A stretch of 64,000 bases of DNA from Gemmatimonadota bacterium (GTDB lineage: Bacteria > Gemmatimonadota > Gemmatimonadetes > Palauibacterales > Palauibacteraceae): positions 1,120,001-1,184,000 of the forward strand of contig OZ220691.1 in the NCBI GenBank assembly GCA_965116475.1, given 5' to 3'. The number at the start of each line of letters is the position of its first letter. Within the stretch, counting starts at the first letter, position 1. Position numbers and translations under genes: made by a program. Below the pieces are notes generated by a model. The model saw only the letters and a list, made by a program, of their open reading frames with translations, searched no databases and was not told the origin of the DNA. Shown piece by piece: positions 703-45,885 of the stretch.

Positions 703-737
703 CGAACTGCCCACGGAACTGTGTTGGAGGATTCCCA

Positions 738-8482: not shown

Positions 8483-9352
8483 TCAGGCCCCCGCCTGTGC
8501 TTCGGGGGCCACGGCCCGGCGGTAGGCTTCCGACAGCGCCCGGGTAATCTCGCCCGGGCGTCCGCTTCCCACGGGCCGGCCGTCCAGTTCCACGGTCGGC
8601 CGCACCTCCGTCGTCGTCCCCGTGAAGAAGATCTCGTCCGCAGCCCGGAGTTCGTTCGCCGTGAAGGCGCGCTCGCGGGCGGGGATCCCCAGTCCCGCGC
8701 ACAATTCGAGCGTGAAGGCGCGGGTGACGCCGTGCAGGATGTGGTTCGTGGCGGGGGCCGTCGTCACCTCTCCGCCGAGCACCGCGAACACGTTGTTGTG
8801 CGTCCCCTCCTGCACCATCCCCTCGCGGATGAAGATCGCGTCCTCCACGTCCGCCTCCACCGCGGCCTGCTGCGCGAGGACGTTGGGCAGGAGGCCGGTC
8901 GTCTTGATGTCGGCGCGGGCCCAGCGCTGGTCCGGCAGCGTGATGGCGCCGAAACCCCGCTCCCACCGCTCCGGCGTCGTGCGCACGAGTTGCTTCGCGA
9001 AGGCGTAGACGGTCGGCGGCACCGCCTCCTGCGGGAACGCGTGCGTGCGGGGGGCGGCGCCGCGCGTCACCTGCATGTAGAAGACGGAGAACTCCGCCGC
9101 GGCGAGATCGTTCCGCGCGATGAGTTCGTCGCCCACGCCGGCGAGGGGAGCCACGTCCGCCTCGATCCGCAGCGTCCGGAGGCCCCACGCGAGCCGGGCC
9201 AGGTGGCGTTCGGGCAGGAAACAGCGGCCCGCATAGGCCGGGATCGCCTCGTAGACCGCGTCCGCGAACAGGAAGCCCCGGTCGTTCACCGAGACCCGCG
9301 CCTCGCCAACGGGCAGGTAGTCTCCGTTCAGATAGACAATGATGGTCCGCAA
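8483..9352 (-). CDS. dat: Class IV PLP aminotransferase, D-amino acid aminotransferase-like
   Basis: VSVNDRGFLFADAVYE, YMQVTRG..PR.H.FP, RWARADIKTTGLLPNVLA, ILHGVTR, ADEIFFTGTT; likely TTG start after GGAGGG. Confidence 0.85.
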   Translation of the reverse strand: MRTIIVYLNGDYLPVGEARVSVNDRGFLFADAVYEAIPAYAGRCFLPERHLARLAWGLRTLRIEADVAPLAGVGDELIARNDLAAAEFSVFYMQVTRGAAPRTHAFPQEAVPPTVYAFAKQLVRTTPERWERGFGAITLPDQRWARADIKTTGLLPNVLAQQAAVEADVEDAIFIREGMVQEGTHNNVFAVLGGEVTTAPATNHILHGVTRAFTLELCAGLGIPARERAFTANELRAADEIFFTGTTTEVRPTVELDGRPVGSGRPGEITRALSEAYRRAVAPEAQAGA

Positions 9353-9596
9353 CCCCTCCGCTTTCGGGAATCGCCCGCGGGCCCGCCGCGGACCCTCCGT
9401 GCCTCGGCACTCTCGGCAGCTCGCGGGTTTCCGGGACACGACACTAGATGCCCGCATGCAGCCCGGAGGGGCAAGTTCGGCCCCCATCTGGTTCACCCTC
9501 GTGCGCCGCGTTAGCGTTCAGCGTTCAGCGCTCGGCGTTAGCGCTCCGCGCGTCGGTTCCGCTGTCGGCCCGCTTTCTTCTGCTTCCGGAGGACCG

Positions 9597-10814
9597 ATGA
9601 AGGTTTCACGGCGAGTTCGCGGCATCCCTGCCACTCGATGGCTCTTCCTGGCGATCATCCTGCCCTCGACGATCCTCGCGGGCGCGACCCGGTTCACACC
9701 GGCGCTGTCGGCGCAGGAAGCGCGCACGCTCTCCTACGGCGAACCGGAGGAGGTCGGCATGTCCCGCGCCGTCCTCGAGGGCGCCCTCGGGCTGTACCAC
9801 GAGGCGGTCGAGCGGGGCGACATCGTGGGCGCCGTCCTGCTGGTCGCCCGCAAGGGGAAGATCGTCCTCCACGAGGCCGTCGGCATGCGCGACAAGGAGC
9901 GCGGGCTGCCCATGGAGCGGAACTCGATGTTCCGCATGGCCTCGAACACGAAGCCCGTCGTGGCCACGGCCATCGCGCAACTCGTCGAAGAGGGCAAGCT
10001 CTCCTACGACGACCTCGTGCGGGAGTACATGCCCGAGTGGGACAACTACCGCGCGGGGTTCATCACGGTCGGCCACCTGCTGTCCCACAGCAGCGGGCTC
10101 CGCATCCCCACCCTCTTCCTGCAGCCGCTGGGCGACAATCCGACCCTGCAGAGCGAGTCGGCCCGCTTCGGCGCGATCGGGGCGGAGGTGACGCCGGGCG
10201 AGACGTACTCCTACAACAATCCGGGCTACAACACGCTCGGCGCGCTGGTCGAGATCGCCTCCGGCCAGCTCCTGGAGGACCGGCTCATGGAGACCGTCTA
10301 CGGGCCGCTCGGGATGGCGGACAGCTACAACCACCACGCCGAGCACCCCGTCGGCGGCAAGGTCGACCGCATGGGCTCCGTCTACTACCAGCGTGGCCCC
10401 GACGGCGACTGGATGCCCGGCGGCACCCCGGGAGGCCCGGTGGCCTTCCCCTTCGCGCGCGCCTCGGGCGGGATGATCTCGTCGGCGTGGGACTACGCGG
10501 TCTTCGCCCAGACCTTCCTGAACGGGGGGACCTACGACGGCGCCGAAATCCTGACGCCGGAATCCGTCGAACTCATGACCTCGCCGAAGATCCACATTGC
10601 CGGCGAGGGGGACGAGGCGAGCTACTACGGATACGGCTGGCGGCTCGCCGACGGCACGTACGGCCACGGTGGGTCGGACGGCACGAACGCCTGGCTCGAC
10701 CCCGACCGCGAGATCATCGGTCTCGTGTTCACGCAGACGCCGCGCGGCGACAACCGCGGCACCCGCCTCGAGCGCTTCCGCGAACTCGTGAACCTCTCGC
10801 TCGAAGGCAACTGA
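9597..10814 (+). CDS. Serine hydrolase, beta-lactamase class C-like family, secreted
   Basis: FRMASNTK (SxxK), LLSHSSG, YSYNNPGY, YGHGGSDGT; signal peptide. Confidence 0.85.
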   Translation: MKVSRRVRGIPATRWLFLAIILPSTILAGATRFTPALSAQEARTLSYGEPEEVGMSRAVLEGALGLYHEAVERGDIVGAVLLVARKGKIVLHEAVGMRDKERGLPMERNSMFRMASNTKPVVATAIAQLVEEGKLSYDDLVREYMPEWDNYRAGFITVGHLLSHSSGLRIPTLFLQPLGDNPTLQSESARFGAIGAEVTPGETYSYNNPGYNTLGALVEIASGQLLEDRLMETVYGPLGMADSYNHHAEHPVGGKVDRMGSVYYQRGPDGDWMPGGTPGGPVAFPFARASGGMISSAWDYAVFAQTFLNGGTYDGAEILTPESVELMTSPKIHIAGEGDEASYYGYGWRLADGTYGHGGSDGTNAWLDPDREIIGLVFTQTPRGDNRGTRLERFRELVNLSLEGN

Positions 10815-11649: not shown

Positions 11650-11651
11650 CC

Positions 11652-15097: not shown

Positions 15098-16240
15098 TCA
15101 TGCGCGGCTCCCCTCGTCCCCTTCGAAGTCCAGCGCGCGGCAGTCGTTGACGGTCCATCCGATGCGGACGGTGTCGCCCACCATCATGGCGCCGTGCCCC
15201 ACGATGTTCGGGATCTTGGCCACGACATCCCGGCCCCCGCAGGCGGCCAGCCGGACGCGCAGGTGGTCGCCGAGAAAGGTCATGTCCTCGATGGCGGCCT
15301 CGACGACGTTGTGATAGAGACCCTCCTCGGGCTTGATCGCGATCCGCTCGGGGCGGATAGAGAGCGTGACCGTTTCGCCGACCCCGCACGGGGCGATCCG
15401 GAAGGCCCGGATCCGCTCGCCCCCCACGTCCACTTCGCACAGGTCCCCCTCCACGAGCGTCACCCGGCCGTGGAGCCGGTTGTTCTCGCCGATGAAGCGG
15501 GCCACGAACGCGCGTTCGGGCTCCTCGTAGAGCCCCTCCGCTCCGGCAATCTGCTCGATCCGGCCGCCGTTGAGGACGGCGATCCGATCCGACATCACCA
15601 TCGCCTCCTGCTGGTCGTGGGTGACGTAGACGACGGTCACGCCCAGCCGCTGATGGATGGAGCGGATCTCGTACTGCATCTCCTCGCGCAGGCTGCGGTC
15701 CAGGGCGCCGAGCGGCTCGTCCATCAGCACGAGTTCGGGTTCGAACACGAGGGCCCGCGCGATGGCCACGCGCTGCTGCTGACCGCCGGAAAGCTGGCCC
15801 GGCCGCCGATCCTCGAGGCCGCCGAGGCGGACGAGGTCGAGCGCACGTTCGACGCGCTCGCGGCGCCGATCCTCCGCGATGCCGCGCACTTCCAGCGGAA
15901 ACGCGAGGTTCGCGCCCACCGTCATGTGCGGAAAGAGCGCGTAGTTCTGGAACACCATCCCGATCCCGCGCTTGCGGGGCGGAAGATCCTGGACGGAGCG
16001 CCCGCCGATGCGGATCGTGCCCGACGTTGCGGTCTGAAAGCCCGCGAGCATCATCAGGATGGTCGTTTTCCCCGAACCGGAAGGACCGAGCAGGGTCACG
16101 AATTCGCCCCTGCCGATGCCGAGGTTCAGGTCGTCCACCACCAGCGTGCGGCCGTCGTAACTCTTGCTCACGCCCTCGAACTCCACGTGCGCGGTCGGGC
16201 TGTGACGGCCACTCTCCGCGCCGTTGCGACCCGCGATCAT
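15098..16240 (-). CDS. potA: Polyamine-type ABC transporter ATP-binding protein (PotA-like)
   Basis: Walker A GPSGSGKT, VFQNYALFPHMTV, LSGGQQQRVA, LMDEPLGALD, VTHDQ, C-terminal TOBE. Confidence 0.92.
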   Translation of the reverse strand: MIAGRNGAESGRHSPTAHVEFEGVSKSYDGRTLVVDDLNLGIGRGEFVTLLGPSGSGKTTILMMLAGFQTATSGTIRIGGRSVQDLPPRKRGIGMVFQNYALFPHMTVGANLAFPLEVRGIAEDRRRERVERALDLVRLGGLEDRRPGQLSGGQQQRVAIARALVFEPELVLMDEPLGALDRSLREEMQYEIRSIHQRLGVTVVYVTHDQQEAMVMSDRIAVLNGGRIEQIAGAEGLYEEPERAFVARFIGENNRLHGRVTLVEGDLCEVDVGGERIRAFRIAPCGVGETVTLSIRPERIAIKPEEGLYHNVVEAAIEDMTFLGDHLRVRLAACGGRDVVAKIPNIVGHGAMMVGDTVRIGWTVNDCRALDFEGDEGSRA

Positions 16241-16370
16241 CTGGCGATCCTGCCTTGTTTTTCGGAATATGGGATGGTGGTCAGCCCCGATCGGGACCGA
16301 CCAACTTGAAGCCGGCGGCGCCAATCCGCGAGTGCGCGTCGCCCTGGCCGTTTGGAGTGGAGGAGGAACG

Positions 16371-17414
16371 ATGAAGATCAGGAACCGGAGGGCGGGAGGG
16401 GTCACGTGGGCCGCCTGCCTGCTCGTCCCCGTCGCCGCGTTCGCCCTGGCGACCGCGGGAGAACCGGACGCGAAGCTGGATTCGGTCTCCGCCGCGCAGG
16501 CCTTCATCTCCCTGCTCGACGAGGCGGGACGCGAGAAGGCGCTCTTCTCCCTGGAGGACGAGGAGCGCTTCAACTGGCACTTCGTCCCGAGGGCCCGGAA
16601 CGGACTGCCGCTCGCCGACATGACGAGCGAGCAGCGCGGCGCCGCGCACGATCTCCTTCAGGCCGCCATGAGCAGCCAGGGCTTTCTGAAGGCCAGCGCG
16701 ATCATCGAACTGGAGCGCATCCTGGGACTCCTGGAGGGGCGGCCCGAGCGCCGGGATCCGGAGAACTACTATGTCGCGATCTTCGGCGACCCGTCCGCGG
16801 ACGGGCCGTGGGCGTGGCGGTTCGAGGGGCATCACCTCTCCCTCAACTTCTCATCGCCTTCCGATCTGCTCACGGTGACGGGGCCCGCGTTCATGGGCGC
16901 GAACCCGGCCCGCGTGCCGTCGGGCCCGAAGGCGGGCTGGCGGCCGCTGGGGCGGGAGGAAGACCTGGCCCGCGCGCTGATGCGGAGCTTCACGCCGGAG
17001 CAGCGCGAGCGGGCGACCATCGCGACCGAGGCTCCCAGCGACATCCTCACCGGGAACGACCGCGAGGCCCGGCTCGACGCGTTCGAGGGTCTGCCCGCCG
17101 ACGCCATGACGGCGGAGCAGCGCGCGGTCCTGTTCGAGATCGTGCACGAGTACGCGGGGAACGCGACGACGGGCGCCGACTGGATGGCGCGGGTGGAGAA
17201 CGAGATTCCGGCGAGCGACATCCACTTCGCCTGGGCGGGTCCGCTCGACCCCGGCGCGGGACACTACTACCGGGTCCACGCGCCGACCTTCCTCATCGAG
17301 TACGACAACACGCAGAACGACGCGAACCACGTGCACTCGGTGTGGCGGGATCTGGAGAACGACTTCGGGGGCGACGCGCTGGCGCGCCACTACGAGGAGT
17401 CCGACCACCACTGA
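16371..17414 (+). CDS. DUF3500 domain-containing secreted protein
   Basis: RFNWHFVP, WRFEGHHLSLN, YYRVHAP.FLIEYDNTQNDANHVHSVWRDLENDFG; GGAGGA RBS; signal peptide. Confidence 0.85.
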   Translation: MKIRNRRAGGVTWAACLLVPVAAFALATAGEPDAKLDSVSAAQAFISLLDEAGREKALFSLEDEERFNWHFVPRARNGLPLADMTSEQRGAAHDLLQAAMSSQGFLKASAIIELERILGLLEGRPERRDPENYYVAIFGDPSADGPWAWRFEGHHLSLNFSSPSDLLTVTGPAFMGANPARVPSGPKAGWRPLGREEDLARALMRSFTPEQRERATIATEAPSDILTGNDREARLDAFEGLPADAMTAEQRAVLFEIVHEYAGNATTGADWMARVENEIPASDIHFAWAGPLDPGAGHYYRVHAPTFLIEYDNTQNDANHVHSVWRDLENDFGGDALARHYEESDHH

Positions 17415-17416
17415 CG

Positions 17417-17448
17417 CCGCGCGGCCCGGCGAACCCGGTCCCGCGCGG
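17417..17448. terminator. Possible bidirectional hairpin between convergent genes
   Basis: CCGCGCGG...CCGCGCGG self-complementary arms around an imperfect CCGG/CCGG core, in the 40-bp spacer between convergent stops. Confidence 0.3.
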
Positions 17449-17454
17449 ACAGGT

Positions 17455-19899
17455 TTACCGCCCGATGAGCCTCAGGAAGCGGGGGTCCCGGCGCACGCGC
17501 TCGAAGTCGTCGGCGCCCGGCAGCGTCTGCCGTCGACCCGGATTGAGTTCGACCGCCCGCTCAAGGGCGTTGAAGGCGTCGTCTTCGCGCCCGTCGTCGA
17601 GCAGGAGCGCGGCCAGCGTCACCCACGCGTTGTCGTTCTCCGGCGACCTGTCCGCAGCGTCGCGCGCCAGCGCCAGGGCGCCCTGCAGGTCGCCGTCCCG
17701 CCGCAGCCGCGAGGCTTCGCGCAGCATCTGGCCCGAACGGTACATGTTGAGGACCCGGCGCAGTTCGGCGAGCGGTGCGTCGTGGTCGTCGACCCGGATG
17801 TCGACGACGCGGTCGCTGTAGCCGCCGTTGACGCGCGGCGCCACGACGAGGATGGCGCCGGACTGCATGCCGCGCGCGTCGCCGCCGGCCGCCTGAGCGG
17901 CGTCGAGCGCGTCCATGAGCCGTTCCGCGAGCGGTCCCGTGGAGGCTTCGAACGAGGCCGCCATCGCGTCGACGACCTCGGGCCCGGTGAGGATGTTCCC
18001 CTGCGCGCAGTAGTCCACGCCGCACCTGTGGCCCTTCCAGTCGCTCGCGCCGGTGCCGGTCCAGGCAGCCGTCCGTCCCTGCTGGTCGAGGATCGCAACC
18101 TGGCGCCGATCCCGGCCCTCGTCGCTTCCCACCATCATCTCGAGCGCCTCCTCGGGCGAGTAGCCGGCCTGCAGGAGCTCGATGCCGATCGCCCCGTACA
18201 TGGGGTTCGCGGCGGCCTGGTGGGCGATGATCACGAGTCCGCCCTTCGCGTGCATGGCGCGGTTTCCGGCCCCGAACGCCTTCGACTGCACACCCATCCC
18301 CAGCTCGCCGGTCGCGGGGTCGCGCCCGATGATCGAGTACGTCCCGAGGTAGTTCGGGTCGTAGTTCGGGTCGACGAGGTCCGCCGCGCCCGATGTCGGA
18401 ACCATGCGCGGCTCGGGGACCGCTTCGGGCGAAGCCCAGGCACCGCCCAGCGCCCGATGGACGGCCAGCCTCGCCAGGGCCAGGTCTCGCGTCGCGCCCG
18501 CCAGCGCCGCCTCGACGTTCAGGAGCGTGCGCAGGGCGTCGAGATAATCGGTGTAGCCCACGACCCCCGACTCGTATCGCTGCGACTGCAGCTCCATCGT
18601 CGCCTGCGCCTCCTCGCGCTGGGAGGCGAGGAACGCGTGCCGTCGCGTCTCGTTCTCCAGGCCGGCGAGTGCGGTTTCGACTTCGTTCACCGCCGTCACC
18701 ACGGTCCGTCCGTACGCCGCGGCGGCTTCATCGAAAAGGCCCTCGGCCAACGCGAGATTGTTCCGGAGCCTACCGGCCTGGAAGATGGGCGCGGTCAGGT
18801 TCGTGATCAGGTTCGTGAACCACTGCTGTGCGTTGAAGAGTTCGCCGGCATCGGAGCTTGCGAGCCCGATGGAACCGGAGAGCGAGAGCGACGGAAGCAG
18901 CTGGGCCCGGCGTGCGCCGATACTGTAGCGGGCCGCGTCGAGCCGCTGGCCCGCCGCCCTCACGTCTGGCCGCTGGTACAGGAGATCCGCCGGAATCCCG
19001 GCGGGGACCGGGTCCGCCGCCAGTTGCGGCGCGAGAGAGTCGGGCAGGATCTCCTCGACGTCGTCCCGATAGCCGCCCAGCAGAACGGCCAGGCGGGCCT
19101 CGGCGCCCGTGAGCTGCGTTTCGAGCTGCGGCAGCCCCGCCTGCGTGTTCCTGAGATCCTGGCGAACCTGGGACAGCGTCCAGGAGTCGATCAGCCCGCG
19201 ATCGTAGCTCGTTGACGCCAGCGACTCGCGTTCGAGCAGCACCTCCACCGTCTCGCGGGCCAGTCCGCTCTGCCGCCGCAGGCTGACGATGTCGAAGTAC
19301 GTGGTGATGGTCTCGGCCAGGATGCCGATCCGCGCCGCATGGAAATCCGATTCCGAAGCCAGGTAGTGTGACCCCGCCGCCCGCGCGTCGTTGCGGGCGC
19401 GTCCCCAGAAGTCCAGCTCCCAGGCGAAATCCGCACTGACCGAATACGTCGTCAGCTCGATTCTTTCCGGAAACGCGAAACCCGCGACCGTATCTCCCGG
19501 ACTGCCGAGCCCGAGAGCCTGTATCTGCGCCCCGATGCCGGCGTCCGTCGGCTGGTCGACGTCGTTGACGGCGCCGCTCGCCCCGACGCTCGGGAAGAGG
19601 TCGGCCCGCGCCATGCGCGCCCTCGCGCGAGCCTGACGGACGCGCGCGACGCCCGCGGCGAGGTCGAAGTTGGAGGCGAGCACGGAATCGACCACGGCGT
19701 CGAGCACCGGATCCCGGAACGTCGTCCACCACTGCAACGGCTCATATGTCCCCGGCGGCAACAGGGCCGTGAAGTCCTCCGGCATCTCCGCCACCGGCTC
19801 CGGCAGGGACGGCCCCGGGGCCAGCGAACAGGCGGAGAGCAGCAGGAGCGGGGCGAGCCGCAGCAGTCTCGTCACACGCGGTGCTTCCGTGCGCGCCAT
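17455..19899 (-). CDS. Fusion protein: NodT/TolC-type outer-membrane efflux lipoprotein + DUF1028 (Ntn-hydrolase-like) + TPR
   Basis: Lipobox LLSAC, WWTTFRDPVL, WELDFWGR, PADLLYQRPDVRAA, LAVHRALGGAW (OEP); then TYSIIGRDPATGELG.GVQSK, AQGNILTGPEVV, AGGDARGMQS, DIRVDDHDAPLAELRR (DUF1028); C-terminal TPR-like helices; one uninterrupted 814-aa ORF. Confidence 0.85.
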   Translation of the reverse strand: MARTEAPRVTRLLRLAPLLLLSACSLAPGPSLPEPVAEMPEDFTALLPPGTYEPLQWWTTFRDPVLDAVVDSVLASNFDLAAGVARVRQARARARMARADLFPSVGASGAVNDVDQPTDAGIGAQIQALGLGSPGDTVAGFAFPERIELTTYSVSADFAWELDFWGRARNDARAAGSHYLASESDFHAARIGILAETITTYFDIVSLRRQSGLARETVEVLLERESLASTSYDRGLIDSWTLSQVRQDLRNTQAGLPQLETQLTGAEARLAVLLGGYRDDVEEILPDSLAPQLAADPVPAGIPADLLYQRPDVRAAGQRLDAARYSIGARRAQLLPSLSLSGSIGLASSDAGELFNAQQWFTNLITNLTAPIFQAGRLRNNLALAEGLFDEAAAAYGRTVVTAVNEVETALAGLENETRRHAFLASQREEAQATMELQSQRYESGVVGYTDYLDALRTLLNVEAALAGATRDLALARLAVHRALGGAWASPEAVPEPRMVPTSGAADLVDPNYDPNYLGTYSIIGRDPATGELGMGVQSKAFGAGNRAMHAKGGLVIIAHQAAANPMYGAIGIELLQAGYSPEEALEMMVGSDEGRDRRQVAILDQQGRTAAWTGTGASDWKGHRCGVDYCAQGNILTGPEVVDAMAASFEASTGPLAERLMDALDAAQAAGGDARGMQSGAILVVAPRVNGGYSDRVVDIRVDDHDAPLAELRRVLNMYRSGQMLREASRLRRDGDLQGALALARDAADRSPENDNAWVTLAALLLDDGREDDAFNALERAVELNPGRRQTLPGADDFERVRRDPRFLRLIGR

Positions 19900-19906
19900 C
19901 GCCTGC

Positions 19907-20623
19907 TCAGGGCGCGATGCTGAAGCCGAACACCAGGTGCGCCCGGTCCTGGTCGGGATTCAGGATGTACGCGACGCTCACCGGCACGGCGAAGGTCTCC
20001 GTGATCGCGAGGTCCTTGCTCGCCGTGACCCCCAGGTTGACCACGGCCGCCTCGTCGGTGCCGTAGAAGTCGCTCTCGCCGCCCACGAAACCCAGGTGCA
20101 GCCCGACACCCACTCCCGACACCTCGAAGGGCACGCCGACCTCCCCGTACAGCACGCTGCTCTCGGTGAGCATGCCTCCGAAAAGGGAGATCGGGAAGGT
20201 CTCCGGACCCGAGAAGGCGAGCGACATCTCCACCGTGTGCGATGCGCCGGCCCCGAAGCCCGTGCGGGCGTCGGGCGAGGGGAAGTAGTAGTCCGTGATC
20301 CCGACCGCGACGGAGAGGCCCGACTCGGCCGTCACCGTGTAGGTCGCCCAGAGATCGTTCTCGTTGGCGGAGGCGCCCGAGGCGGAGATGGAGTACGAAC
20401 CCCACGCACCGAACTCGAGCCCTCCGGCACCAAAGGTGATCGCCGGCTGCACGGCCATGGACTCGCCGAAGTCGACGCCGCGCCATACGTAGCGGCTGAC
20501 GACGTCGGCTCCGATGGAGGCCGACTGGCCCCACACGGGGGCGGCGAAGGCGAAGAGGGCCACGACGGCAACAGCGAGCCGGAGGCCCCGGAACCGGAAC
20601 GAATCAACGCGGATCACGGACAC
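19907..20623 (-). CDS. Putative outer-membrane beta-barrel/porin (TorF-like)
   Basis: Signal peptide; GADVVSRYVWRG..QP, GAWGS, ENDL, ITDYYF; alternating beta pattern, ends HLVFGFSIAP; GAGGAG RBS before GTG. Confidence 0.65.
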   Translation of the reverse strand: MSVIRVDSFRFRGLRLAVAVVALFAFAAPVWGQSASIGADVVSRYVWRGVDFGESMAVQPAITFGAGGLEFGAWGSYSISASGASANENDLWATYTVTAESGLSVAVGITDYYFPSPDARTGFGAGASHTVEMSLAFSGPETFPISLFGGMLTESSVLYGEVGVPFEVSGVGVGLHLGFVGGESDFYGTDEAAVVNLGVTASKDLAITETFAVPVSVAYILNPDQDRAHLVFGFSIAP

Positions 20624-21486
20624 GATTCTTCTCCTCTCTCGATAGTGACCCGGGAGCGAAGCATGGACTCCGCCGAACCCCGGAAGACGCCGCGAGTGGG
20701 CGGAACATCCGCATAATCGCGGCCCACCGCGACCCGCACATGGCGCACATCGCATTGTGTATCGTTGGTCGGATCGAAGCCGACCCAGCCCATGCCGGGA
20801 AACCAGCTCTCGACCCAGGCATGGCTTTCGCCCCTCGTCACGCCACCGCCGTTCCCACCATCCGGACCCAGATAACCGGACACGTAACGGGTCGGGATCC
20901 CCCAACCCCGCAGGATCGAAGCCATGACATGCGCGTAGTCCTGGCACACACCCTCGCGGCTCTCCAGGATGCGCTCGATCGGCGAATCCACGGCGGTCGT
21001 ACCTGGAATATAATCAAACGACTCGTGGAGCCGGCTCCGCAGGGCCGTGGCGGTCGCCAGCGGGTCGTCCCCGCGCTCGATGCCGCAGCTCGTGATGAAG
21101 TCGGCGAGGAGTGGCGAGGAGCGGACGAAACGGCTGGGCTGCAGCATCAGCCCGAGTTCGGGAGCGCTCGCCGCCGCGCCGAGCCGGGCCCATGCCTCTT
21201 CCCCGACCTCGACGGGCGTCTCCGGCATGGGACCCACCTCCACGGTCGAACGTCCGACGATCGAGAGACGGCGATGCGTCCCGGGGCGATCGAAGAAGTG
21301 GCCCCGATTGTGAAACGGCCCCTCGAACTCGAACACCGGGCCGGCCGGGTCGGTCTCGATCGCGAAACGGCGCACCACCTGTCTTCGATCCTGCACGGGG
21401 TGCAGATAGAGCGTCATGACCGACGCCCGAACCGGCGCGCTGTACACGAACTCGACCGCGTGTTCGATCGTGTAGCGCACGATCAT
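20614..21486 (-). CDS. Transglutaminase-like protein (Bact_transglu_N + Transglut_core)
   Basis: YTIEH...Y..PV, catalytic GVCQDYAH, RYVSGY, SHAWVE, GFDPTN, VAVGRDYADVPP.RG. Confidence 0.92.
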   Translation of the reverse strand: MIVRYTIEHAVEFVYSAPVRASVMTLYLHPVQDRRQVVRRFAIETDPAGPVFEFEGPFHNRGHFFDRPGTHRRLSIVGRSTVEVGPMPETPVEVGEEAWARLGAAASAPELGLMLQPSRFVRSSPLLADFITSCGIERGDDPLATATALRSRLHESFDYIPGTTAVDSPIERILESREGVCQDYAHVMASILRGWGIPTRYVSGYLGPDGGNGGGVTRGESHAWVESWFPGMGWVGFDPTNDTQCDVRHVRVAVGRDYADVPPTRGVFRGSAESMLRSRVTIERGEESCP

Positions 21487-22466
21487 GACGGGAGTCCCGC
21501 GGTCACCGGGTAGTCGACGTACGTGGCCTGCACCAGGTCGTGCAGGGTCCGGCTGTCGCGCGTCAGAGCACCGAAGGCCTTCCCGGGCCCGGCGTCGGGT
21601 ACGGGTTCCGCCTCGCCCGGGTCGAGTTCGAGGGCCGCGGCGATCCGGAGCGCCAGGCGGTGCGGCGCGGCGAGCGGCGGCCGTCCGCCGGCCGGGTCGA
21701 TGCCCCGCAGCGTGGATTCGATGCGGCCGGTGGCGTAGTGCAGCGAACGGGAAACCTGCGGGTTCCGCATCAGAAAGCCGAGCACGGAGCTGCGCCGCAG
21801 CGCGAGAGACCGGTCCCGGCGGTAGGGTTCGAAGGCGCCGCACACGCGCAGCAGATCGGCCCAGGAGAGGGCCAGGCCGTCGCCTTCCGGCCGGGCGATC
21901 CGATCCCATACTTCGAGCAGCACGATCTGCTGCTGCAGCCGTTCCACGTAGCGGCCGAGTTCGAGGAAGCGCCACGCATCGTCCCTGGCCATGCTGGCGT
22001 CCACGACCCCGGCGAGGAGGCGCAGCCGGTCGATCGCCTGGCTCACGAGAGCCGCCGGTCCTTCGCCCCATACTTCAGCGAACTCCGTCTCCTGGAGCCA
22101 GAGGAACCCCTGGTTCAGACACACCCACACCCGCAGGGGCAGCCGGGGCCGGATCTCCCTGGCGTTTTCCCGCGCCATCCCCCAGCACGAAATCATCGAC
22201 GCCGGGTTCGTCGTGTCTTCGACGAGGCCGCCGGTCAACGTGTAGGCATCCGCGATGAGGAAGGCTTCGGCCTCGTCCACATCGGCCGGCGCCTGGGGCG
22301 GGGACTGACTCAGCGCCCGGTAGACGACGCGCCACCCGAGGGCGAGTTCATCGGCGTCCGTATCCACGAGACGGGTCAGCTGATACTCGAGCAGGCGGGC
22401 CGTGTTTTCGGTCCGTTCCGCGTAGCGGCCGAGCCAGTAGAAGTTCGCCGCCATCCGGGCTAGCAT
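21483..22466 (-). CDS. Alpha-E domain protein
   Basis: MLARMAANFYWLGRYAERTENTARLL, ARENAREIR, WRFLELGRYVER. Confidence 0.9.
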   Translation of the reverse strand: MLARMAANFYWLGRYAERTENTARLLEYQLTRLVDTDADELALGWRVVYRALSQSPPQAPADVDEAEAFLIADAYTLTGGLVEDTTNPASMISCWGMARENAREIRPRLPLRVWVCLNQGFLWLQETEFAEVWGEGPAALVSQAIDRLRLLAGVVDASMARDDAWRFLELGRYVERLQQQIVLLEVWDRIARPEGDGLALSWADLLRVCGAFEPYRRDRSLALRRSSVLGFLMRNPQVSRSLHYATGRIESTLRGIDPAGGRPPLAAPHRLALRIAAALELDPGEAEPVPDAGPGKAFGALTRDSRTLHDLVQATYVDYPVTAGLPS

Positions 22467-22490
22467 CGTCCGTCGCCTCTCACCCGTCCG

Positions 22491-23990
22491 CTACTCACGG
22501 AGGATCCAGAGATCCTTGCAGCCTCCGCCCTGGCTGGAGTTCACGACCAGGCTTCCCTTCCTCAGCGCAACGCGGCACAGCCCCCCGGGAACGACATGCT
22601 GCGTTTCGCTCCCCTGGAGAACGAAGGGGCGCAGGTCCACGTGGCGAGGCTCCAGCCGTCCGTCCACGAAACAGCCGGCCCGTGAGAGGGGCAGCACGGG
22701 CTGCGAGATGTAGTTGGCCGGGTCGCTCCGCAGGTGCTCCGCGAACGCTTTCCGCTCGGCTTTCGTCGCATGCGGACCCACAAGCATCCCGTAGCCGCCG
22801 CTCCCGCCGACTTCCTTGACGACGAGTTCCTCCAGGTTGTCCAGCGTGTAGGCGAGGCCGTCCGGCTCCCGGCAGAGATGGGTCTCGACGTTGGCCAGAA
22901 TCGGCTCCTCATCCAGAAAATAGCGGATGATGCGGGGGACGTACGCGTACAGCGCCTTGTCGTCCGCCACGCCCGTGCCCGGCGCGTTGGCGAGCACCAG
23001 GTTGCCGGCGCGGTAGGCGTGGAAGAGGCCGGCGGCCCCCAGGACGGAGTCGTCCCGGAACGCGATCGGATCCAGAAAATCGTCATCGATCCGCCGATAG
23101 AGCACGTCGATCCGCCGCAGACCCGCGGCCGTGCGGGCGTACAGCGTCGCGTCGTGCACGACGAGATCCCGCCCCTCCACCAGATCCACGCCCATCTCGC
23201 CGGCCAGGAACGCGTGCTCGTAGTAGGCGGAGTTGTAGCGGCCCGGCGTCAGCACGGCCATGCGGGGCGTCTCCGCGGTCCGCGAGAGCGACGCGAGCGT
23301 CGAGTAGAGGCGCTCCGGGTAGTCCGCCACCTCGCGGACCCCGTACGCCCGATACAGGTAGGGGAAAGCCCACTTCATCGCCGTGCGGCAGGCGAGCATG
23401 TAGGAAACGCCCGACGGGACGCGGAGATTGTCCTCCAGCACCGCGAAGGTGTCGCCGGCGCGCACGATGTCCGTCCCGCACACGGCGACGTAGACATCGT
23501 GCGGCACCTTCATCTCCCGCATCTCGAGGCGGTACTGCGGACAGCTGAGCACGAGGTCGACCGGGACGATGCCGTCCCGCAGCGACTTCCCGTCGTGGTA
23601 GACATCGTGCAGGAACAGGTTGAGGGCGGCGAGGCGCTGCTTCAGCCCCCGCTCGATGTGATCCCACTCCTCGGCGGTGATGAGGCGCGGCACGCAGTCG
23701 ATGGGGATGATCTGCTCCGAGACATCTTCGACGCCGAGGACCGTGAACGTGATCCCCTCATGGACGAAACGCCGGTACACCCCGTCCTGGAGCCGCTCCA
23801 GATCTTCGGGGGGGATCTTCGAGAGGGCGGCGCCGAGCCGGCGCGCCCGCGCCCTGGGCGTACCGTCCTCGTGGAACAACTCGTCGTGAAACGCGGCATC
23901 CAGCTCGTAGTGCCGGAAAGGCCCGGACCCCGCCGAGATCGCGGGGTCCGGGTCGGCATAGCCGTGATCGACGAACGTCACCGCCGACAT
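22491..23990 (-). CDS. Circularly permuted type 2 ATP-grasp protein
   Basis: GITF, VLEDNLRVPSGVSY, LTPGRYNSAYYEH.FLA, DVLYRRIDDDFLDP, NAPGTGVADDK, GSGGYGM, PRHVDLRPF, LVVNSSQGGG.KD. Confidence 0.93.
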   Translation of the reverse strand: MSAVTFVDHGYADPDPAISAGSGPFRHYELDAAFHDELFHEDGTPRARARRLGAALSKIPPEDLERLQDGVYRRFVHEGITFTVLGVEDVSEQIIPIDCVPRLITAEEWDHIERGLKQRLAALNLFLHDVYHDGKSLRDGIVPVDLVLSCPQYRLEMREMKVPHDVYVAVCGTDIVRAGDTFAVLEDNLRVPSGVSYMLACRTAMKWAFPYLYRAYGVREVADYPERLYSTLASLSRTAETPRMAVLTPGRYNSAYYEHAFLAGEMGVDLVEGRDLVVHDATLYARTAAGLRRIDVLYRRIDDDFLDPIAFRDDSVLGAAGLFHAYRAGNLVLANAPGTGVADDKALYAYVPRIIRYFLDEEPILANVETHLCREPDGLAYTLDNLEELVVKEVGGSGGYGMLVGPHATKAERKAFAEHLRSDPANYISQPVLPLSRAGCFVDGRLEPRHVDLRPFVLQGSETQHVVPGGLCRVALRKGSLVVNSSQGGGCKDLWILRE

Positions 23991-23994
23991 TGAA

Positions 23995-24014
23995 CGCTAC
24001 CCGTCGCTACCCGT
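23995..24014. repeat. 10-bp direct tandem repeat (CGCTACCCGT x2) in the amt / ATP-grasp spacer
   Basis: Read directly from the sequence. Confidence 0.7.
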
Positions 24015-24024
24015 GGGCGGACGC

Positions 24025-25434
24025 TCAGTCCGCGTCGCGGTAGTCGTTGTCGTCGTCCGGATCCACCATGAGGACGAATTCGGGATAGGCATCGATCCCG
24101 AGTTCCGCCGCGTCCTGGCCGATGCTCTCGACGCTCCGCGACACGCGAACGCCCATCGTCCTGTCCAGCACCGTCCAGAAGATCCAGGAAACGGAGAAGA
24201 CGAACGCGCCCACGGCCGCGACGCCGGTCAACTGCACCCAGACATCGCCGCCGGCCGCGATGGCGGTGGCGAGCGTGCCCCAGATTCCGGCGAACAGGTG
24301 TGCGGGCACGGCGCCGACCACGTCGTCGATCCGCCGCACCTCGAGCAGCTTCAGCCCGAACATGCACAGGAGCGAGCCGACGGCGCCGATCAGGATCGCC
24401 CACAGCGAGTTGGTGATGTTCGGTCCCGCGGTGATCGCCACCATGCCGGAGATCGCCCCGTTGAGTGTGGCGAAGAGGTCGACCCGGCCGAGTATGGACC
24501 GGGACAGGCAGAGCGCCGTGATGACGCCGGCCGCGGCGGCGAGGTTCGTGTTCACGAGGATGTTGCTCATGGAGACCGCGTTGACAACGCCCGAGAGGGC
24601 GAGTTCGGAGCCCCCGTTGAAGCCGAACCAGCCCATCCAGAGGATGAACACCCCCAGCGTGACGGCGGGGATGTTCGAGGGCGGGGTCAGCTTGATGGAG
24701 CCGTCCTTGCGGTACTTGCCCCAGCGCGGACCCACGACGAGTGCGCCGGCCAGCGCCGCCCAGCCGCCGGTCGAGTGCACGATCGTGGAGCCGGCGAAGT
24801 CCGTGAAGCCCATCTGTCCGAGCCAGCCGCCACCCCACGTCCACGCGCCGACGATGGGGTAGATGACCGCGGTGAGCCCGCCCACGAAGACGAAGAAGGT
24901 CCAGAGCTTGACCCGCTCGGCCAGCGCGCCGGAGACGATCGAGGCAGTCGTGGCGACGAAGACCATCTGGAAGAACCAGTCCGACATCACGGAGTAGCCG
25001 TTCTCCGCGACGGCGGCGGCCGCGCCTTCGTCCCCGCCGATGAGCGCGACCTCGTCGGCGGACGGGCCGTAGAGGAAGCTGATCGACCCGATCAGGCTCC
25101 CGACGTCCACGTACATGAGGTTGTAGCCGATGACGTAGTACATGAGACCCGCAATCGAGTACAGTCCGATGTTCTTCATGCAGATCATGGACGCGCTCTT
25201 GGACCGCACGGACCCGGCTTCGAGCATCGTGAAACCCGCGCACATCCACATCACGAGCACGCCCCAGACGAGGAACGAATACGTGTTGAGGACGAACCCG
25301 AGATCTCCGACAACGTCCTGCGCGGCGACGACGGCCGGCGCCAGGAGGAGGCCCGCGCCGGAGAGCAGCGCGGCGGTTGCGAGATTCCTTCCCGCCGCGA
25401 ACCGGCGGGACCAGCGTACCTGATGGGTGCTCAC
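24025..25434 (-). CDS. amtB: Ammonium transporter (Amt family)
   Basis: GFTMLEAG, FFQMVFVAT..SIVSGALAER, DFAGSTIVH, GWFGFNGGS, IDDVVGAVPAH (twin His kept); GTG start after GAAGGAG. Confidence 0.93.
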   Translation of the reverse strand: MSTHQVRWSRRFAAGRNLATAALLSGAGLLLAPAVVAAQDVVGDLGFVLNTYSFLVWGVLVMWMCAGFTMLEAGSVRSKSASMICMKNIGLYSIAGLMYYVIGYNLMYVDVGSLIGSISFLYGPSADEVALIGGDEGAAAAVAENGYSVMSDWFFQMVFVATTASIVSGALAERVKLWTFFVFVGGLTAVIYPIVGAWTWGGGWLGQMGFTDFAGSTIVHSTGGWAALAGALVVGPRWGKYRKDGSIKLTPPSNIPAVTLGVFILWMGWFGFNGGSELALSGVVNAVSMSNILVNTNLAAAAGVITALCLSRSILGRVDLFATLNGAISGMVAITAGPNITNSLWAILIGAVGSLLCMFGLKLLEVRRIDDVVGAVPAHLFAGIWGTLATAIAAGGDVWVQLTGVAAVGAFVFSVSWIFWTVLDRTMGVRVSRSVESIGQDAAELGIDAYPEFVLMVDPDDDNDYRDAD

Positions 25435-25620
25435 GGCGGCTCCTTCTTCAACAGGTTCTGTCGGCTTGATCGTGCCCCTCCGCGACTCTCGATCTAGGTT
25501 GCGTCCCTGCTCGGCATCGCGCAACGGGTTCCCGGAGGGCCGGTAGCCGAACGGCGGCAGCCGCTTATCTTCGGGAGTGACCGGACTGCACCGGAATCTT
25601 CGACGAGAGGGCATATCATC

Positions 25621-26679
25621 ATGTGGAAACGCTCCATCGGAGTGGTCGCCGCATTCGGGTTGGGGCTGGCGCTCCCTGCCGCACACCCCCTCCTTGCCCA
25701 GGAAATCCGGGCTCGTGGCGGCTCCACCGTCACCGTGGGCGCCCGGATCCAGGCACAATACGAGGCTTCGAGCGTCGACGAGACGCCTTCGTCCTTCTTC
25801 ATCCGGCGCGCCTGGGTGACCATCGACGGGAGGCTCAACGATCTCGTCGCCGCCAGGGCGCAGTTCAACATCGACGGCGCATCGGTTCTCGAAGCGTACC
25901 TCGAACTCACACCCAGCGAGGCGCTGGAGATCCAGTTGGGGCAGTTCAAGAAGGGGATGTCGTACTTCTGGCTGGTGCCCAACGCCTGGCTCCCGATCAT
26001 CGAACGAGACGCCAGGGTCACGGGAGTGGATCACTGCCCCGGGGTCGGGAGCGTCTGCACCTTCGGCCGTCTCACCGGCGCGCTGGGCCTGGACAACTAC
26101 GAGCCCGGCATCCTCGCGCAGGGGCGCCCCAGCGACCACTTCGGCTACCGCTTCACGCTCACCAACGGCGAGGGGATCGGGAACAAGGACGTGAACACCG
26201 GGAAGTCGGCCTCGGGCCAGCTCTCGCTCTTCCCCACCGGAGGAAACACGCGCGTGTCCGCCTACTTCGCCCTGGACGAGACGCTCAACAGCCGGGACGA
26301 GACGATGGGAGTCCCCGCGATCGGGGCCGAGGTGGAATTCGGCACCTGGCTCGGCGGTCCCCACCTGATCGCCAACGTCCTGCAGGGCCGCAACTGGAAG
26401 CTGAACGATGACGCGAAGTTCTCCGCCTTCCAGTTCATGGCCTTCTGGTACGTTCCCACGGCCCCGGAGTCCGGGTTCTCGGGGATCGAGCCGATGCTGC
26501 GGGTAAGCTGGGTCGACTCCGGCGCGGAGCATCCGGAAAAGGTCACCGGGACGGTGGTCACGCCGGGCGTCATGGTGTACTTCGCGGGTCGAAACGGGAT
26601 CTCCACGAACGTGGACTTCTACAGCTCGGGCGGCCGGTCGGACTGGTCCTGGAAGGTGCAGGCGTTCGCGTTCTTCTGA
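25621..26679 (+). CDS. Porin (OprO/OprP-like), divergent from amt
   Basis: Signal peptide, RIQAQY, FFIRRAW, EAYLE...IQLGQFK, NGEG, C-terminal QAFAFF. Confidence 0.7.
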   Translation: MWKRSIGVVAAFGLGLALPAAHPLLAQEIRARGGSTVTVGARIQAQYEASSVDETPSSFFIRRAWVTIDGRLNDLVAARAQFNIDGASVLEAYLELTPSEALEIQLGQFKKGMSYFWLVPNAWLPIIERDARVTGVDHCPGVGSVCTFGRLTGALGLDNYEPGILAQGRPSDHFGYRFTLTNGEGIGNKDVNTGKSASGQLSLFPTGGNTRVSAYFALDETLNSRDETMGVPAIGAEVEFGTWLGGPHLIANVLQGRNWKLNDDAKFSAFQFMAFWYVPTAPESGFSGIEPMLRVSWVDSGAEHPEKVTGTVVTPGVMVYFAGRNGISTNVDFYSSGGRSDWSWKVQAFAFF

Positions 26680-26715
26680 TCGGGCCCGGACGGGCCGCGA
26701 CGAATCAACGCATCA

Positions 26716-26747
26716 GGGGGGCGCGCTGGCGATCCGGCGCGCCCCCC
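26716..26747. terminator. GC-rich hairpin between convergent porin and STAS genes
   Basis: GGGGGGCGCGCTGG-CGAT-CCGGCGCGCCCCCC, followed shortly by T-rich bases. Confidence 0.65.
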
Positions 26748-26767
26748 GATCCGTTTCCCGGCCTTTT

Positions 26768-27103
26768 CTAGCTGAAGCTCGCCTGAGCTTCTTCGACCGT
26801 ATCGAAGACCTTCGTCAGCCGCACGAAACCGCTGACCTCCAGCACTTCGAGGATATTCTCCGGGACCTGGCACAGGGCGAGCCCGCCGCCGGCCTGGTTG
26901 GTCTTGCGGATGGCGATCAGCAGCGCCCGCAACCCGGCACTGCTGATGTAGCGCAGGCTCCCGCAATCCAGGACCAGGTTGGTCGCTCCGCCATCGATGA
27001 TGCCGGAGAGCTCCCCGTCGAAGTCCTTGGCGTTGCTGGAGTCTACGCGCCCGCTGACCACCCCTACGGCGGTATCTCCCGAATAGCTGGTCTCAATGTT
27101 CAT
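26768..27103 (-). CDS. STAS-domain anti-sigma factor antagonist (RsbV/SpoIIAA-like)
   Basis: SGRVDS, LVLDCGSLRYISSAGLRALL (phosphoacceptor Ser), EVLEVSGF. Confidence 0.9.
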   Translation of the reverse strand: MNIETSYSGDTAVGVVSGRVDSSNAKDFDGELSGIIDGGATNLVLDCGSLRYISSAGLRALLIAIRKTNQAGGGLALCQVPENILEVLEVSGFVRLTKVFDTVEEAQASFS

Positions 27104-32330: not shown

Positions 32331-32343
32331 GGGTTCGCCGCAT

Positions 32344-32384
32344 GGATCATGATGGATCATGGAGGGATCACGGAGGGATCATGA
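32344..32384. repeat. Imperfect tandem repeat of GGATCA(T/C)G units just upstream of the amidohydrolase start
   Basis: ggatcatgat-ggatcatggag-ggatcacggag-ggatcatga. Confidence 0.6.
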
Positions 32385-34039: not shown

Positions 34040-34677
34040 AATATACGCGCGGGATCGGGCTGCTCCTGGCGCTGGCCGCGTGCCGCGGCGACGCGGGCGA
34101 GGGGGAGGCGCGGACCGTCCAGCCCGGCGCTCCCGGCGAGGCCACGCGCGTCCTGACGGTGGAGGAGGCGGCGTCCCTCGAGCACGTCACGCACACCGAG
34201 GCGGACGTGCGCTTCATGCAGGGGATGATCCCGCACCACGCCCAGGCGCTTGAAATGGCCGCGCTCATTCCGGAGCGGGCGGACCACGAAGGCCTGCACC
34301 TGCTCGGGCGCCGGATCGAGATCTCCCAGCGGGACGAGATCGCGTGGATGACGCGCTGGCTCGAGCGGCGCGGCGAGACGGCTCCGATGGTGGGGGCCGA
34401 ACACGCGCACGGACTCGGCGAGGGCGAACTCATGCCGGGGATGCTGTCCCGCGAGGAGATGGACGCGCTCGCCGCGGCGCGGGGCTCCGCGTTCGACCGG
34501 CTCTTCCTCGAAGGCATGATCAAGCATCATCGGGGCGCGCTCATGATGGTGGCGGAACTGTTCGACAGTCCCGGCGGAGGTCAGGAGACCGAGATTTTTC
34601 GGTTCGCGGCGGATGTGGACGCGGACCAGGACATGGAGATCCTGCGCATGCGGGACCTGTTGAACACGATCCCATGA
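34036..34677 (+). CDS. DUF305 domain lipoprotein (ferritin-like)
   Basis: Lipobox LAAC; ADVRFMQGMIPHHAQALEM, MPGM, FDRLFLEGMIKHHRGA; TTG start overlaps upstream stop. Confidence 0.88.
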   Translation: MKYTRGIGLLLALAACRGDAGEGEARTVQPGAPGEATRVLTVEEAASLEHVTHTEADVRFMQGMIPHHAQALEMAALIPERADHEGLHLLGRRIEISQRDEIAWMTRWLERRGETAPMVGAEHAHGLGEGELMPGMLSREEMDALAAARGSAFDRLFLEGMIKHHRGALMMVAELFDSPGGGQETEIFRFAADVDADQDMEILRMRDLLNTIP

Positions 34678-42989: not shown

Positions 42990-43006
42990 GATCTCGCCTC
43001 CCCCCG

Positions 43007-44981: not shown

Positions 44982-44985
<4 letters not shown>
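43999..44985 (-). CDS. bat-operon membrane protein (DUF4381/BatD-like)
   Basis: Signal peptide, DIREVKGP, TM, AHEIALEAL, DLVKFAK. Confidence 0.75.
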
Positions 44986-45857
<872 letters not shown>

Positions 45858-45885
45858 CCCTCGATCCCTTCGCTTCCCCGAACGC

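Follow-up and report, generated by a model that had tools for sequence, protein, structure and literature searches.

The architecture of outer-membrane factors (OMFs), with a C-terminal tail at the equatorial domain, is outlined in PMC8277102, and the available part of that source describes no enzyme domain on an OMF. Hydrolases of the N-terminal nucleophile (Ntn) type are made as inactive precursors that cleave themselves at the nucleophile (PMC9140057). The available text of the same source places SPO2555 (structure 2imh), a DUF1028 protein, in an uncharacterised Thr-nucleophile subfamily that resembles the proteasome (SCOPe d.153.1.7). In a stretch of 64,000 nucleotides from a Gemmatimonadota bacterium of the family Palauibacteraceae (contig OZ220691.1, positions 1,120,001 to 1,184,000; hereafter, the window), a single gene at 17455..19899 encodes both kinds of protein in one chain: a lipoprotein OMF built of OEP domains, followed by a DUF1028 domain and a TPR tail. 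The literature on TolC or OMF fusions and C-terminal extensions contained, by title or abstract, none on such a fusion, and searches for DUF1028 (COG3342, PF06267, IPR010430, 2IMH) found PMC9140057 as the only relevant source. The gene is a genuine fusion, fixed in its lineage, and we lean towards the view that it works as the precursor of two proteins. The enzyme would borrow the export signal of the OEP and cut itself free between Gly519 and Thr520.

The gene is a single open reading frame (ORF) that starts with ATG and has 814 codons and a stop on the minus strand (Table 1). A plus-strand reading of the same interval was ruled out, as its translation is interrupted by stops. An in-frame OEP-DUF1028-TPR chain had been proposed from the sequence alone (the original prediction), and it is present as proposed, with Pfam and NCBIfam matches above their cut-offs; all coordinates given there are right, and the strand, which it did not name, is minus. 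Two tandem OEP repeats (PF02321) are recognised by Pfam in two stretches (E 4.3e-45), and the NCBIfam model outer_NodT (TIGR01845) is matched over positions 2-459 of 460 with 293.2 bits, against a cut-off of 210.05. The alignment with the solved OMFs OprJ, CmeC, OprN and OprM runs from Cys24 to residue 489 (for OprJ, 5azs_A, residues 24-489 with E 2.3e-45), and Cys24 lies opposite the first residue of mature OprJ, CmeC and OprN. Judged against these solved proteins, the OEP half is complete from Cys24 to residue 489. The signal peptide and the lipobox were assigned by eye from the sequence. The end of the OEP body, ALGGAW, was found where it had been predicted (residues 483-488, window 18436..18453), and the linker, put at about 30 residues, has 31. 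Behind it, PF06267 is matched over its whole profile (1-193 of 193) with E 9.1e-65 and 218.5 bits, against a gathering score of 26.2. Profile position 1 falls exactly on Thr520, whose ACG codon is the Thr codon singled out in the original prediction. The proposed Gly/Thr autoprocessing site thus coincides with the start of the domain, whereas cleavage at this site is what we infer. The tail is matched by TPR_19 in Pfam (29.2 bits, cut-off 25) and by TPR_END_plus in NCBIfam (35.5 bits, cut-off 32).

Residues 489-814 were modelled by AlphaFold2 with an alignment of 75 sequences, and the model reached a mean pLDDT of 90.3 and a pTM of 0.86. Thr520 (Thr32 in model numbering) is predicted to be the first residue of strand 1 (E32-39), and the C-terminal part forms seven helices (model residues 221-323) with a pLDDT of about 98. 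When the model was compared with the PDB by Foldseek, 2imh came first (TM 0.82, rmsd 1.8, 32 % identity), and the next matches were proteasome beta subunits and HslV (TM about 0.5, probability 1.00, identity 8-17 %). The predicted structure of the DUF1028 domain has the four-layer alpha-beta-beta-alpha core of Ntn hydrolases. In a MAFFT alignment of relatives with the window as the first row, all 75 sequences have Thr520 and Ser522. The residues conserved in all 75 are T32 (Thr520), S34, G46, Q73, D105, R111, Q112, N147, D217 and others.

The origin of the gene becomes visible through a relative in which the two parts are separate (related loci are labelled L below, and related proteins P). 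Locus L013 has the same synteny as the fused loci, but it encodes the OEP (503 aa, with the C-terminus ..PEPRMVPANGNLEEGRR-TGA, also cited as ..PRMVPANGNLEEGRR-TGA) and the DUF1028-TPR protein (331 aa) in two genes that overlap by ATGA. The hydrolase starts ATG-MKRRSVLLALGWLIAVPAALSAQKAVRDLPDPNYLG/TYSIIGRD, where the slash, here and below, stands before the family Thr. Its ATG overlaps the OEP stop, and its N-terminus consists of a signal-peptide-like leader and a short propeptide, followed by the Thr. In the alignment of the junction DNA, the fused genes lack the stretch from after ..GAAGAGG to before GA(T/C)CTC. Relative to L013, the distance from ALGGAW to the Thr is 86 nt shorter in L005 and L008, 92 nt shorter in L002, L010 and L011, and 95 nt shorter in L001. 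These values were computed for the loci named; in the alignment, L006 and L007 share the junction of L005 and L008, L003, L009 and L012 show the 92-nt pattern, and L004 shares the junction of L001. In the window, the distance is 83 nt shorter, which corresponds to the 95-nt type plus a 12-bp duplication. All of these differences (83, 86, 92 and 95 nt) are 2 mod 3. The deletion took the OEP stop, the hydrolase start and precisely the hydrolase signal peptide, and the propeptide DPNYLG/T was kept, so that in the linker the OEP's own tail (ASPEAVPEPRMVPTSG..) is followed by what is left of the DUF1028 propeptide (..DLVDPNYDPNYLG). This comparison of sequences demonstrates that the fusion originated in a deletion between two genes that were coupled. 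The original prediction had listed an accidental deletion as an alternative to a functional fusion. The deletion stands as the origin, with 83-95 nt lost, but it is not an accident of one genome, since it is carried by 12 species-level genomes and the gene is under purifying selection. That note had also looked to close relatives for a separate OEP with RND partners and a separate DUF1028 gene with a signal peptide. Both genes are indeed separate in L013, but they are adjacent, translationally coupled and without RND partners.

Stand-alone forms of both halves occur elsewhere. OEPs with the same tail stand alone in P0073 (..GNSEEGGR), P0074 and P0075-79, and signal-bearing DUF1028-TPR proteins with 82-88 % identity stand alone in P0271-P0280. 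The pairs P0079 and P0272, P0082 and P0275, and P0083 and P0278 are probably encoded side by side, since within each pair the longest contigs have the same length. More distant relatives of the OEP (63-68 % identity; Longimicrobiales and others) lie in OEP-adaptor-RND operons, where a HlyD-family gene follows the OEP gene in 4/4 loci scanned and ACR_tran in 3/3. No match to the HlyD/MFP, ACR_tran or MacB families was found among the 64 ORFs scanned in the 64-kb window. The adjacent ABC genes are of the importer type (ABC_tran with TOBE_2, two BPD_transp_1 and two SBP_bac_8). The earlier statement that no MFP or RND/ABC partner is adjacent thus holds across the whole window. The OEP gene of Palauibacter is thus an orphan, unlike those in the classical operons of distant relatives; its partners may be encoded elsewhere in the genome. 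As for the enzyme, genes that flank stand-alone DUF1028-TPR in L016 and L020 recur in the window at 372..1631, 8483..10814 and 32327..34677 (a DLH/YqhI hydrolase, a class IV aminotransferase, a beta-lactamase-family gene, and an amidohydrolase plus DUF305). Because these flanking genes sit elsewhere in the window, their positions suggest that the enzyme gene was moved next to the OEP by a rearrangement in the Palauibacter line.

The full fused gene is present in 12 loci (L001-L012), each from a different species-representative genome, at 88-93 % identity. The hosts are Candidatus Palauibacter irciniicola, denitrificans, ramosifaciens and rhopaloidicola, as well as other Palauibacter and Gemmatimonadota assemblies, some of which are complete chromosomes of 3.7-4.0 Mb. 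The window evidently belongs to the same genus, members of which are known from sponges and marine sediments (PMC10469786); the available part of this paper on the Palauibacterales does not mention TolC, Ntn or "outer membrane". One gene order is shared by all 12 fused loci: Amt (ammonium transporter), circularly permuted ATP-grasp, Alpha-E, transglutaminase, a porin-like gene, the fusion, DUF3500, ABC (importer) and two SBP genes. In the outgroup loci (L015-L055), the genes that flank the fusion in the window were unmatched at E 1e-8, and no synteny is shared. Thirteen protein clusters (P0002-P0014, formed at 90 % identity; lengths 803-813 aa, with one partial) contain both PF02321 and PF06267, and they are 87-94 % identical to the window protein over residues 440-814. 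Since none of the best 150 matches in 1.84 billion representative proteins aligned to both halves, the OEP-DUF1028 architecture appears to be confined to the Palauibacter lineage. The public names give one half only, either "efflux transporter outer membrane subunit" or "DUF1028 domain-containing protein, partial" (P0010, P0004). The ratio of nonsynonymous to synonymous substitution rates (dN/dS) was computed for 66 pairs of 12 fused genes, namely the window and L001-L012 without L011, whose start was not fixed; L013 and L014, which are unfused, were left out. The medians over these pairs were 0.12 for the OEP (464 codons), 0.04 for DUF1028, 0.24 for the TPR tail, 0.38 for the linker and about 1 for the signal peptide. 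The OEP and DUF1028 halves are both under purifying selection, and the linker evolves fast and changes length, with indels of 3-12 nt between fused genes. The fusion would be an artefact if it came from misassembly or from a frameshift in sequencing, or if an internal start yielded a separate DUF1028 protein. Misassembly, which the original prediction had called a real alternative, and sequencing error are excluded because 12 genomes share the fusion with the same junction in identical synteny, in independent assemblies that include complete chromosomes. An internal start could use Met498, which lies inside the linker. This Met is, however, part of the conserved OEP tail PRMVP, which unfused OEPs also have, and the product would be without an export signal, whereas a hydrophobic leader (read by eye) is present in 59/59 stand-alone relatives with inspected N-termini. 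The chance that the gene is an artefact of any of these kinds is very close to nil.

The region just before the Thr is conserved far beyond the fused genes. For this analysis, 190 relatives were located by the motif T[YF]S[IV], by which the Thr is fixed by construction, and 189 of them have 12 or more residues upstream. At position -1, 89 of these 189 have Gly, 89 have Ala (together 178/189) and 7 have Ser; Leu is found at -2 in 153, Tyr at -3 in 128, and Asp-Pro at -6/-5 in 141. The consensus of the propeptide is AQ[DE]YDP[DN]YL[GA]/T. Most of the relatives (159 of 190) have an upstream part of 12-70 residues, which reads, as judged by eye, as a hydrophobic leader ending in ..A-x-A/Q, followed by (Q)[DE]YDP[DN]YL[GA]. 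Signal peptidase would thus leave several residues before the Thr, and an N-terminal-nucleophile enzyme can work only once these are removed.

More than 70 extra residues precede the same motif in 30 of the 190 relatives, and 14 of these are OEP fusions. The other partners, as read from their Pfam accessions, include an RND adaptor (P0045), SDR-like domains (P0046, L015), beta-lactamase-family proteins (P0048-51), hexosaminidases (P0060, P0062) and others. P0045 (715 aa, Candidatus Palauibacter sp.) consists of an RND periplasmic adaptor fused to DUF1028-TPR. Its junction, ..ETAAQVHDPNYLG/T, matches the part of the stand-alone P0323 that follows the signal, and its adaptor half is 61-67 % identical to adaptors encoded beside outgroup OEPs. 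Because P0045 groups with P0323 in the DUF1028 tree and the SDR fusions lie in other clades, these fusions are independent events. The SDR-type example in L015 is a 648-aa ORF (L015:7086-9032) with a leader and an SDR-like domain, then DPDEDPDYLA/T and DUF1028-TPR. It was missed in the public record because NCBI annotates only a 281-aa protein (P0328) from an internal Met. Within the fused clade, the OEP body has been deleted in frame in L014 (Ca. P. poriticola, 8001-9113, a 370-aa ORF) and in P0270 (348 aa). Both retain the lipoprotein signal, the tail, DPNYLG/T and DUF1028-TPR, and both nest among fused sequences in the DUF1028 tree. The deletion junction in L014 lies at a repeat of 6-9 nt (GAGCCG / PEP), a microhomology that is suggestive and no more. 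Since L014 and P0270 dropped the OEP body and kept the signal and the hydrolase, it is the export signal that matters. From the sequences, the pattern is as would be expected of an enzyme that needs only to be exported and then frees itself. In three other loci (L030:8025-9926, L035:8001-9848 and L046:4030-5850; 660-690 aa), a second, weaker DUF1028-TPR match (42-44 %) stands right after the first and could be a tandem copy or an extended repeat region.

The two readings offered in the original prediction were a channel that carries three hydrolase domains and a polyprotein that releases the hydrolase into the periplasm. The second is favoured by the conserved propeptide, by the repeated fusions and by the loss of nothing but the signal peptide. 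The sequence of events may be pictured as follows. The ancestor had a NodT-type OMF gene followed, with an ATGA overlap, by a gene for a secreted DUF1028-TPR Ntn hydrolase that carried a Sec signal peptide of its own and, behind it, a short propeptide. About 86 nt were then deleted, so that the stop of the OEP and the start and signal peptide of the hydrolase were lost and ..DPNYLG/T was kept. The resulting 814-aa precursor would be exported by Sec and lipidated at Cys24 through the OEP lipoprotein signal. As is usual in this family, the OEP would insert as a trimer, with its C-terminal tail at the periplasmic equatorial belt. The DUF1028-TPR part would then fold in the periplasm at the flexible OEP tail and cut its own Gly519-Thr520 bond, which would free the alpha-amino group of Thr520 that the catalytic mechanism requires. 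Finally, DUF1028-TPR would be released, and the OEP would be left with a tail about 10-15 residues longer than in its unfused relatives. The end result is the same as with the two ancestral genes, and this would account for the fusion being tolerated and retained.

A number of observations weigh against this picture of a self-cleaving precursor. According to the part of PMC9140057 available, DUF1028 is a family without peer-reviewed data, and self-cleavage is unproven for the fold: in 2imh, the Thr is at chain position 4 and is probably exposed by removal of the initiator Met. The propeptide might also have been conserved for the sake of folding or as a recognition site of another protease. 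The scissile bond itself sits in a linker that is predicted to be disordered (pLDDT 54-60), where the model is uninformative. Neither is the history of the fusion simple. The stand-alone OEP P0073 is 97.5 % identical to the OEP half of the fused L011 and is placed inside the fused clade in an OEP tree of 25 rows, from which 18 stand-alone OEPs without the ALGGAW anchor were left out. With a tree of 23 rows, an approximately unbiased (AU) test rejected the fused OEPs as a monophyletic group (p 0.0025), the fused group having been defined after the tree was seen. In the DUF1028 tree (70 chosen rows, quick method), the fused L010 and L011 join the unfused L013 and P0271 with an SH-aLRT of 98. The attempt to show a single origin of the fusion thus failed, as the OEP tree, the AU test and the DUF1028 tree all conflict with it. 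Fused and unfused states are interleaved, and therefore either the deletion was repeated or alleles were moved by recombination. Derived residues next to the junction are common to the fused forms (N-L-L, against the ancestral D-L-P), and these shared residues favour, at the level of sequence, one event spread by recombination.

The protein might instead stay whole, or its parts docked, so that the trimeric channel bears three DUF1028-TPR units at the equatorial belt, which would act on passing or assembling material or regulate the recruitment of the adaptor. The purifying selection on both halves fits such a machine. Before the fusion, the gene pair was already coupled by ATGA, and in P0045 the enzyme was independently fused to a periplasmic adaptor of the RND type; both facts hint that the enzyme is functionally linked with efflux components, and this counts against its simple release. 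The C-terminal tail of OMFs belongs to the equatorial domain and affects the interaction with the adaptor in OprM (PMC8277102), and the TPR tail would be a plausible docking module. On the other hand, an uncleaved Ntn hydrolase would be without the free amino group of its Thr and should be inactive, as the account in PMC9140057 implies. A linker that is predicted to be disordered and varies in length and sequence is a poor match for such a device, as are the occurrence of the enzyme alone and behind unrelated partners, the OEP body being deletable while the enzyme is kept, and the absence of an efflux partner among the 64 ORFs scanned. We consider a permanently armed channel unlikely. A different proposal is that the OEP has become a mere export vehicle, no longer an efflux duct, which is kept for its signal peptide and is eroding. 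No MFP, RND or exporter gene was found in the window, the nearest OEPs outside Palauibacter lie in OEP-MFP-RND operons, and L014 and P0270 have already lost the OEP body. An eroding gene is difficult to reconcile with the OEP dN/dS of 0.12 (464 codons, 66 pairs), with the absence of frameshifts or stops in 12 genomes, and with the intact full-length match to solved OMFs. Moreover, it is normal for an OMF gene to be an orphan and to serve a pump encoded at another place, as TolC does in E. coli. An eroding OEP is for these reasons rather improbable. A combination of ideas is also conceivable, in which secreted DUF1028-TPR is a self-excising cargo module that in Palauibacter becomes docked on the channel after cleavage by its TPR tail, perhaps on the new ..DPNYLG C-terminus; this is a long shot. 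We thus remain inclined towards the self-cleaving precursor of two independent proteins.

As for what the enzyme might do, the genes around its stand-alone forms provide an indication. This survey covered 45 of 77 candidate neighbour ORFs and did without L018, a near-copy of L016. Stand-alone DUF1028-TPR lies beside SusC-like TonB-dependent receptors in 8 of the 19 outgroup loci scanned. These SusC-like neighbours, which have a CarboxypepD_reg domain, are found in Longimicrobiales and related groups (L026, L027, L028, L030, L035, L036, L040 and L041, around 8000-12200), and SusD-like genes are present in all 3 of these loci scanned for them (L027, L030, L036). Other frequent neighbours of the stand-alone gene are beta-lactamase-family, amidohydrolase, M19 and S9 peptidase genes. 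Because of these SusC/SusD-like, peptidase and amidohydrolase contexts, the gene neighbourhoods suggest that the enzyme is a periplasmic amidase or peptidase that acts on imported material.

The 12-bp duplication that encodes DPNY-DPNY was confirmed as exact: its unit GACCCGAACTAC is present in two identical copies, and Tandem Repeats Finder reports it at 18349..18373 (period 12, 2.1 copies, 100 % matches). It is private to the window and absent from all 12 fused orthologues, which read ..L[LFP]DPNYLG/T. From this comparison, it is a real insertion and not a product of chance, and it arose by slippage in the genome of the window. The duplication copies propeptide positions -10 to -7 and leaves the proximal DPNYLG/T intact, and we see no reason to assign it a function. 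Another exact 12-bp tandem repeat lies in the OEP part at 18795..18818 on the minus strand (TCACGAACCTGA twice, read as TNLITNLT). This one is no insertion, because relatives have a similar TNLLSNLT of the same length.

The features of the gene and its neighbours are collected in Table 1. The fusion is the last gene of a packed minus-strand run (19907..23990) that is kept in L001-L014. Its upstream neighbour, a gene of 238 codons that is 78-92 % identical across these loci, has no Pfam match and a weak TorF-family match in NCBIfam (E 2.4e-5, below the cut-off); it probably encodes an outer-membrane beta-barrel. Anbu-type proteasome homologues often accompany ATP-grasp/Alpha-E/transglutaminase genes, and this gene was considered as one; the idea was dropped on the evidence of Pfam (none) and NCBIfam (only the weak TorF-porin match). 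A scan of 17200..26800 for promoters and terminators was uninformative, with 0 promoter-like sites and with 3 terminator-like sites where 3.3 were expected. Farther away, on the minus strand at 39311..47406, the window contains a Bat/MoxR-type cluster with BatD, vWA proteins, BatA-vWA, DUF58 and a MoxR AAA_3 ATPase.

Table 1. Coordinates of the fused gene, its parts and its neighbours in the window.
Feature	Coordinates	Strand	Basis or remark
Fused gene: lipoprotein OEP, linker/propeptide, DUF1028, TPR	17455..19899	-	ORF translation, Pfam, NCBIfam
Signal peptide, residues 1-24, lipobox L-S-A-C (Cys24; LLLLSAC)	19828..19899	-	Sequence, OMF alignment
NodT-family outer-membrane factor body, residues 25-488, ends ALGGAW	18436..19827	-	Pfam, TIGR01845, OprJ
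Linker, residues 489-519 (31 aa), fusion junction inside	18343..18435	-	Comparison with unfused L013
12-bp tandem duplication DPNYDPNY, residues 510-517	18349..18372	-	Sequence, Tandem Repeats Finder
Thr520 codon ACG, predicted N-terminal nucleophile and self-cleavage site Gly519/Thr520	18340..18342	-	PF06267 position 1, invariance, model
DUF1028, residues 520-713, proteasome-like Ntn-hydrolase fold (predicted)	17761..18342	-	Pfam, 2imh by sequence and fold
TPR tail, helical, residues 714-814	17458..17760	-	TPR_19, TPR_END_plus, model helices
Upstream gene, 238 aa, GTG start, signal-like N-terminus	19907..20623	-	Ends 7 bp before the ATG of the fusion
Transglutaminase-like	20614..21486	-	Upstream, tightly packed
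Alpha-E	21483..22466	-	Upstream; ATGA overlap with the transglutaminase-like gene
Circularly permuted ATP-grasp	22491..23990	-	Upstream, same-strand run
DUF3500	16224..17414	+	Convergent downstream gene; stop 40 bp from the stop of the fusion

On the long-shot reading of a docked cargo module, cutting at [GA]/T would let the enzyme lose its own signal peptide and ride on any exported protein placed upstream, as has happened repeatedly. An outer-membrane duct would then be provided with a dedicated periplasmic proteasome-like peptidase, and the enzyme, which would be co-transcribed with the ATP-grasp, Alpha-E and transglutaminase genes, might act on their product. The locus is also a natural experiment on an unstudied family, which has a proteasome-like Ntn fold and one structure. 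Self-processing is directly testable, since close relatives have the genes in separate, fused and OEP-deleted form, and since the prediction names a precise site. The merger of coupled envelope genes by deletion of one signal peptide is a rarely documented route to fusion, and a self-cleaving domain would make such a merger harmless. In a practical sense, surveys of efflux and resistance in sponge symbionts miscount these proteins because the public names describe one half. The scope is limited in that the fusion appears confined to one genus and each half is of a known family.

The one DUF1028 protein with a solved structure, SPO2555 of Ruegeria (Silicibacter) pomeroyi, belongs to the same family (sequence E 3.1e-21) and also has its Thr at the start of strand 1. 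It is short and stands alone, with the Thr near the start of the chain and without a leader, propeptide or TPR, whereas the window domain begins at residue 520 behind an OEP and has a conserved propeptide and a TPR tail. In active proteasome beta subunits, a propeptide is removed by autolysis before Thr1, with Gly at position -1. The window domain resembles these subunits and HslV in fold, and its DUF1028 relatives mostly have Gly or Ala at -1. It differs from them in its low sequence identity, its presumed periplasmic location and its TPR tail; nothing points to assembly into rings, and we do not claim that it is a member of the proteasome family. On the OMF side, OprJ, OprM, OprN, CmeC and CusC are full-length homologues (E 2e-45 to 2e-39), with a match that begins at the lipidated Cys and reaches the C-terminal tail, and they share the two OEP repeats. 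Known OMFs end about 20 residues past the last helix, whereas the window OEP carries an enzyme and is without a nearby adaptor or transporter gene. That a peptidase can be joined to part of a tripartite export system is known from the C39-peptidase ABC exporters of type 1 secretion (PMC8277102). There, the peptidase is a cytoplasmic papain-like domain on an inner-membrane ABC protein and acts on the leader of the exported substrate. Periplasmic Ntn precursors include those of penicillin G acylase, cephalosporin acylase and gamma-glutamyltranspeptidase. In these enzymes, a signal peptide is followed by a precursor that cuts itself in the periplasm and exposes the nucleophile (PMC9140057). Their fragments stay together as one enzyme, whereas the N-terminal fragment of the window protein would be an unrelated, independently functional membrane protein.

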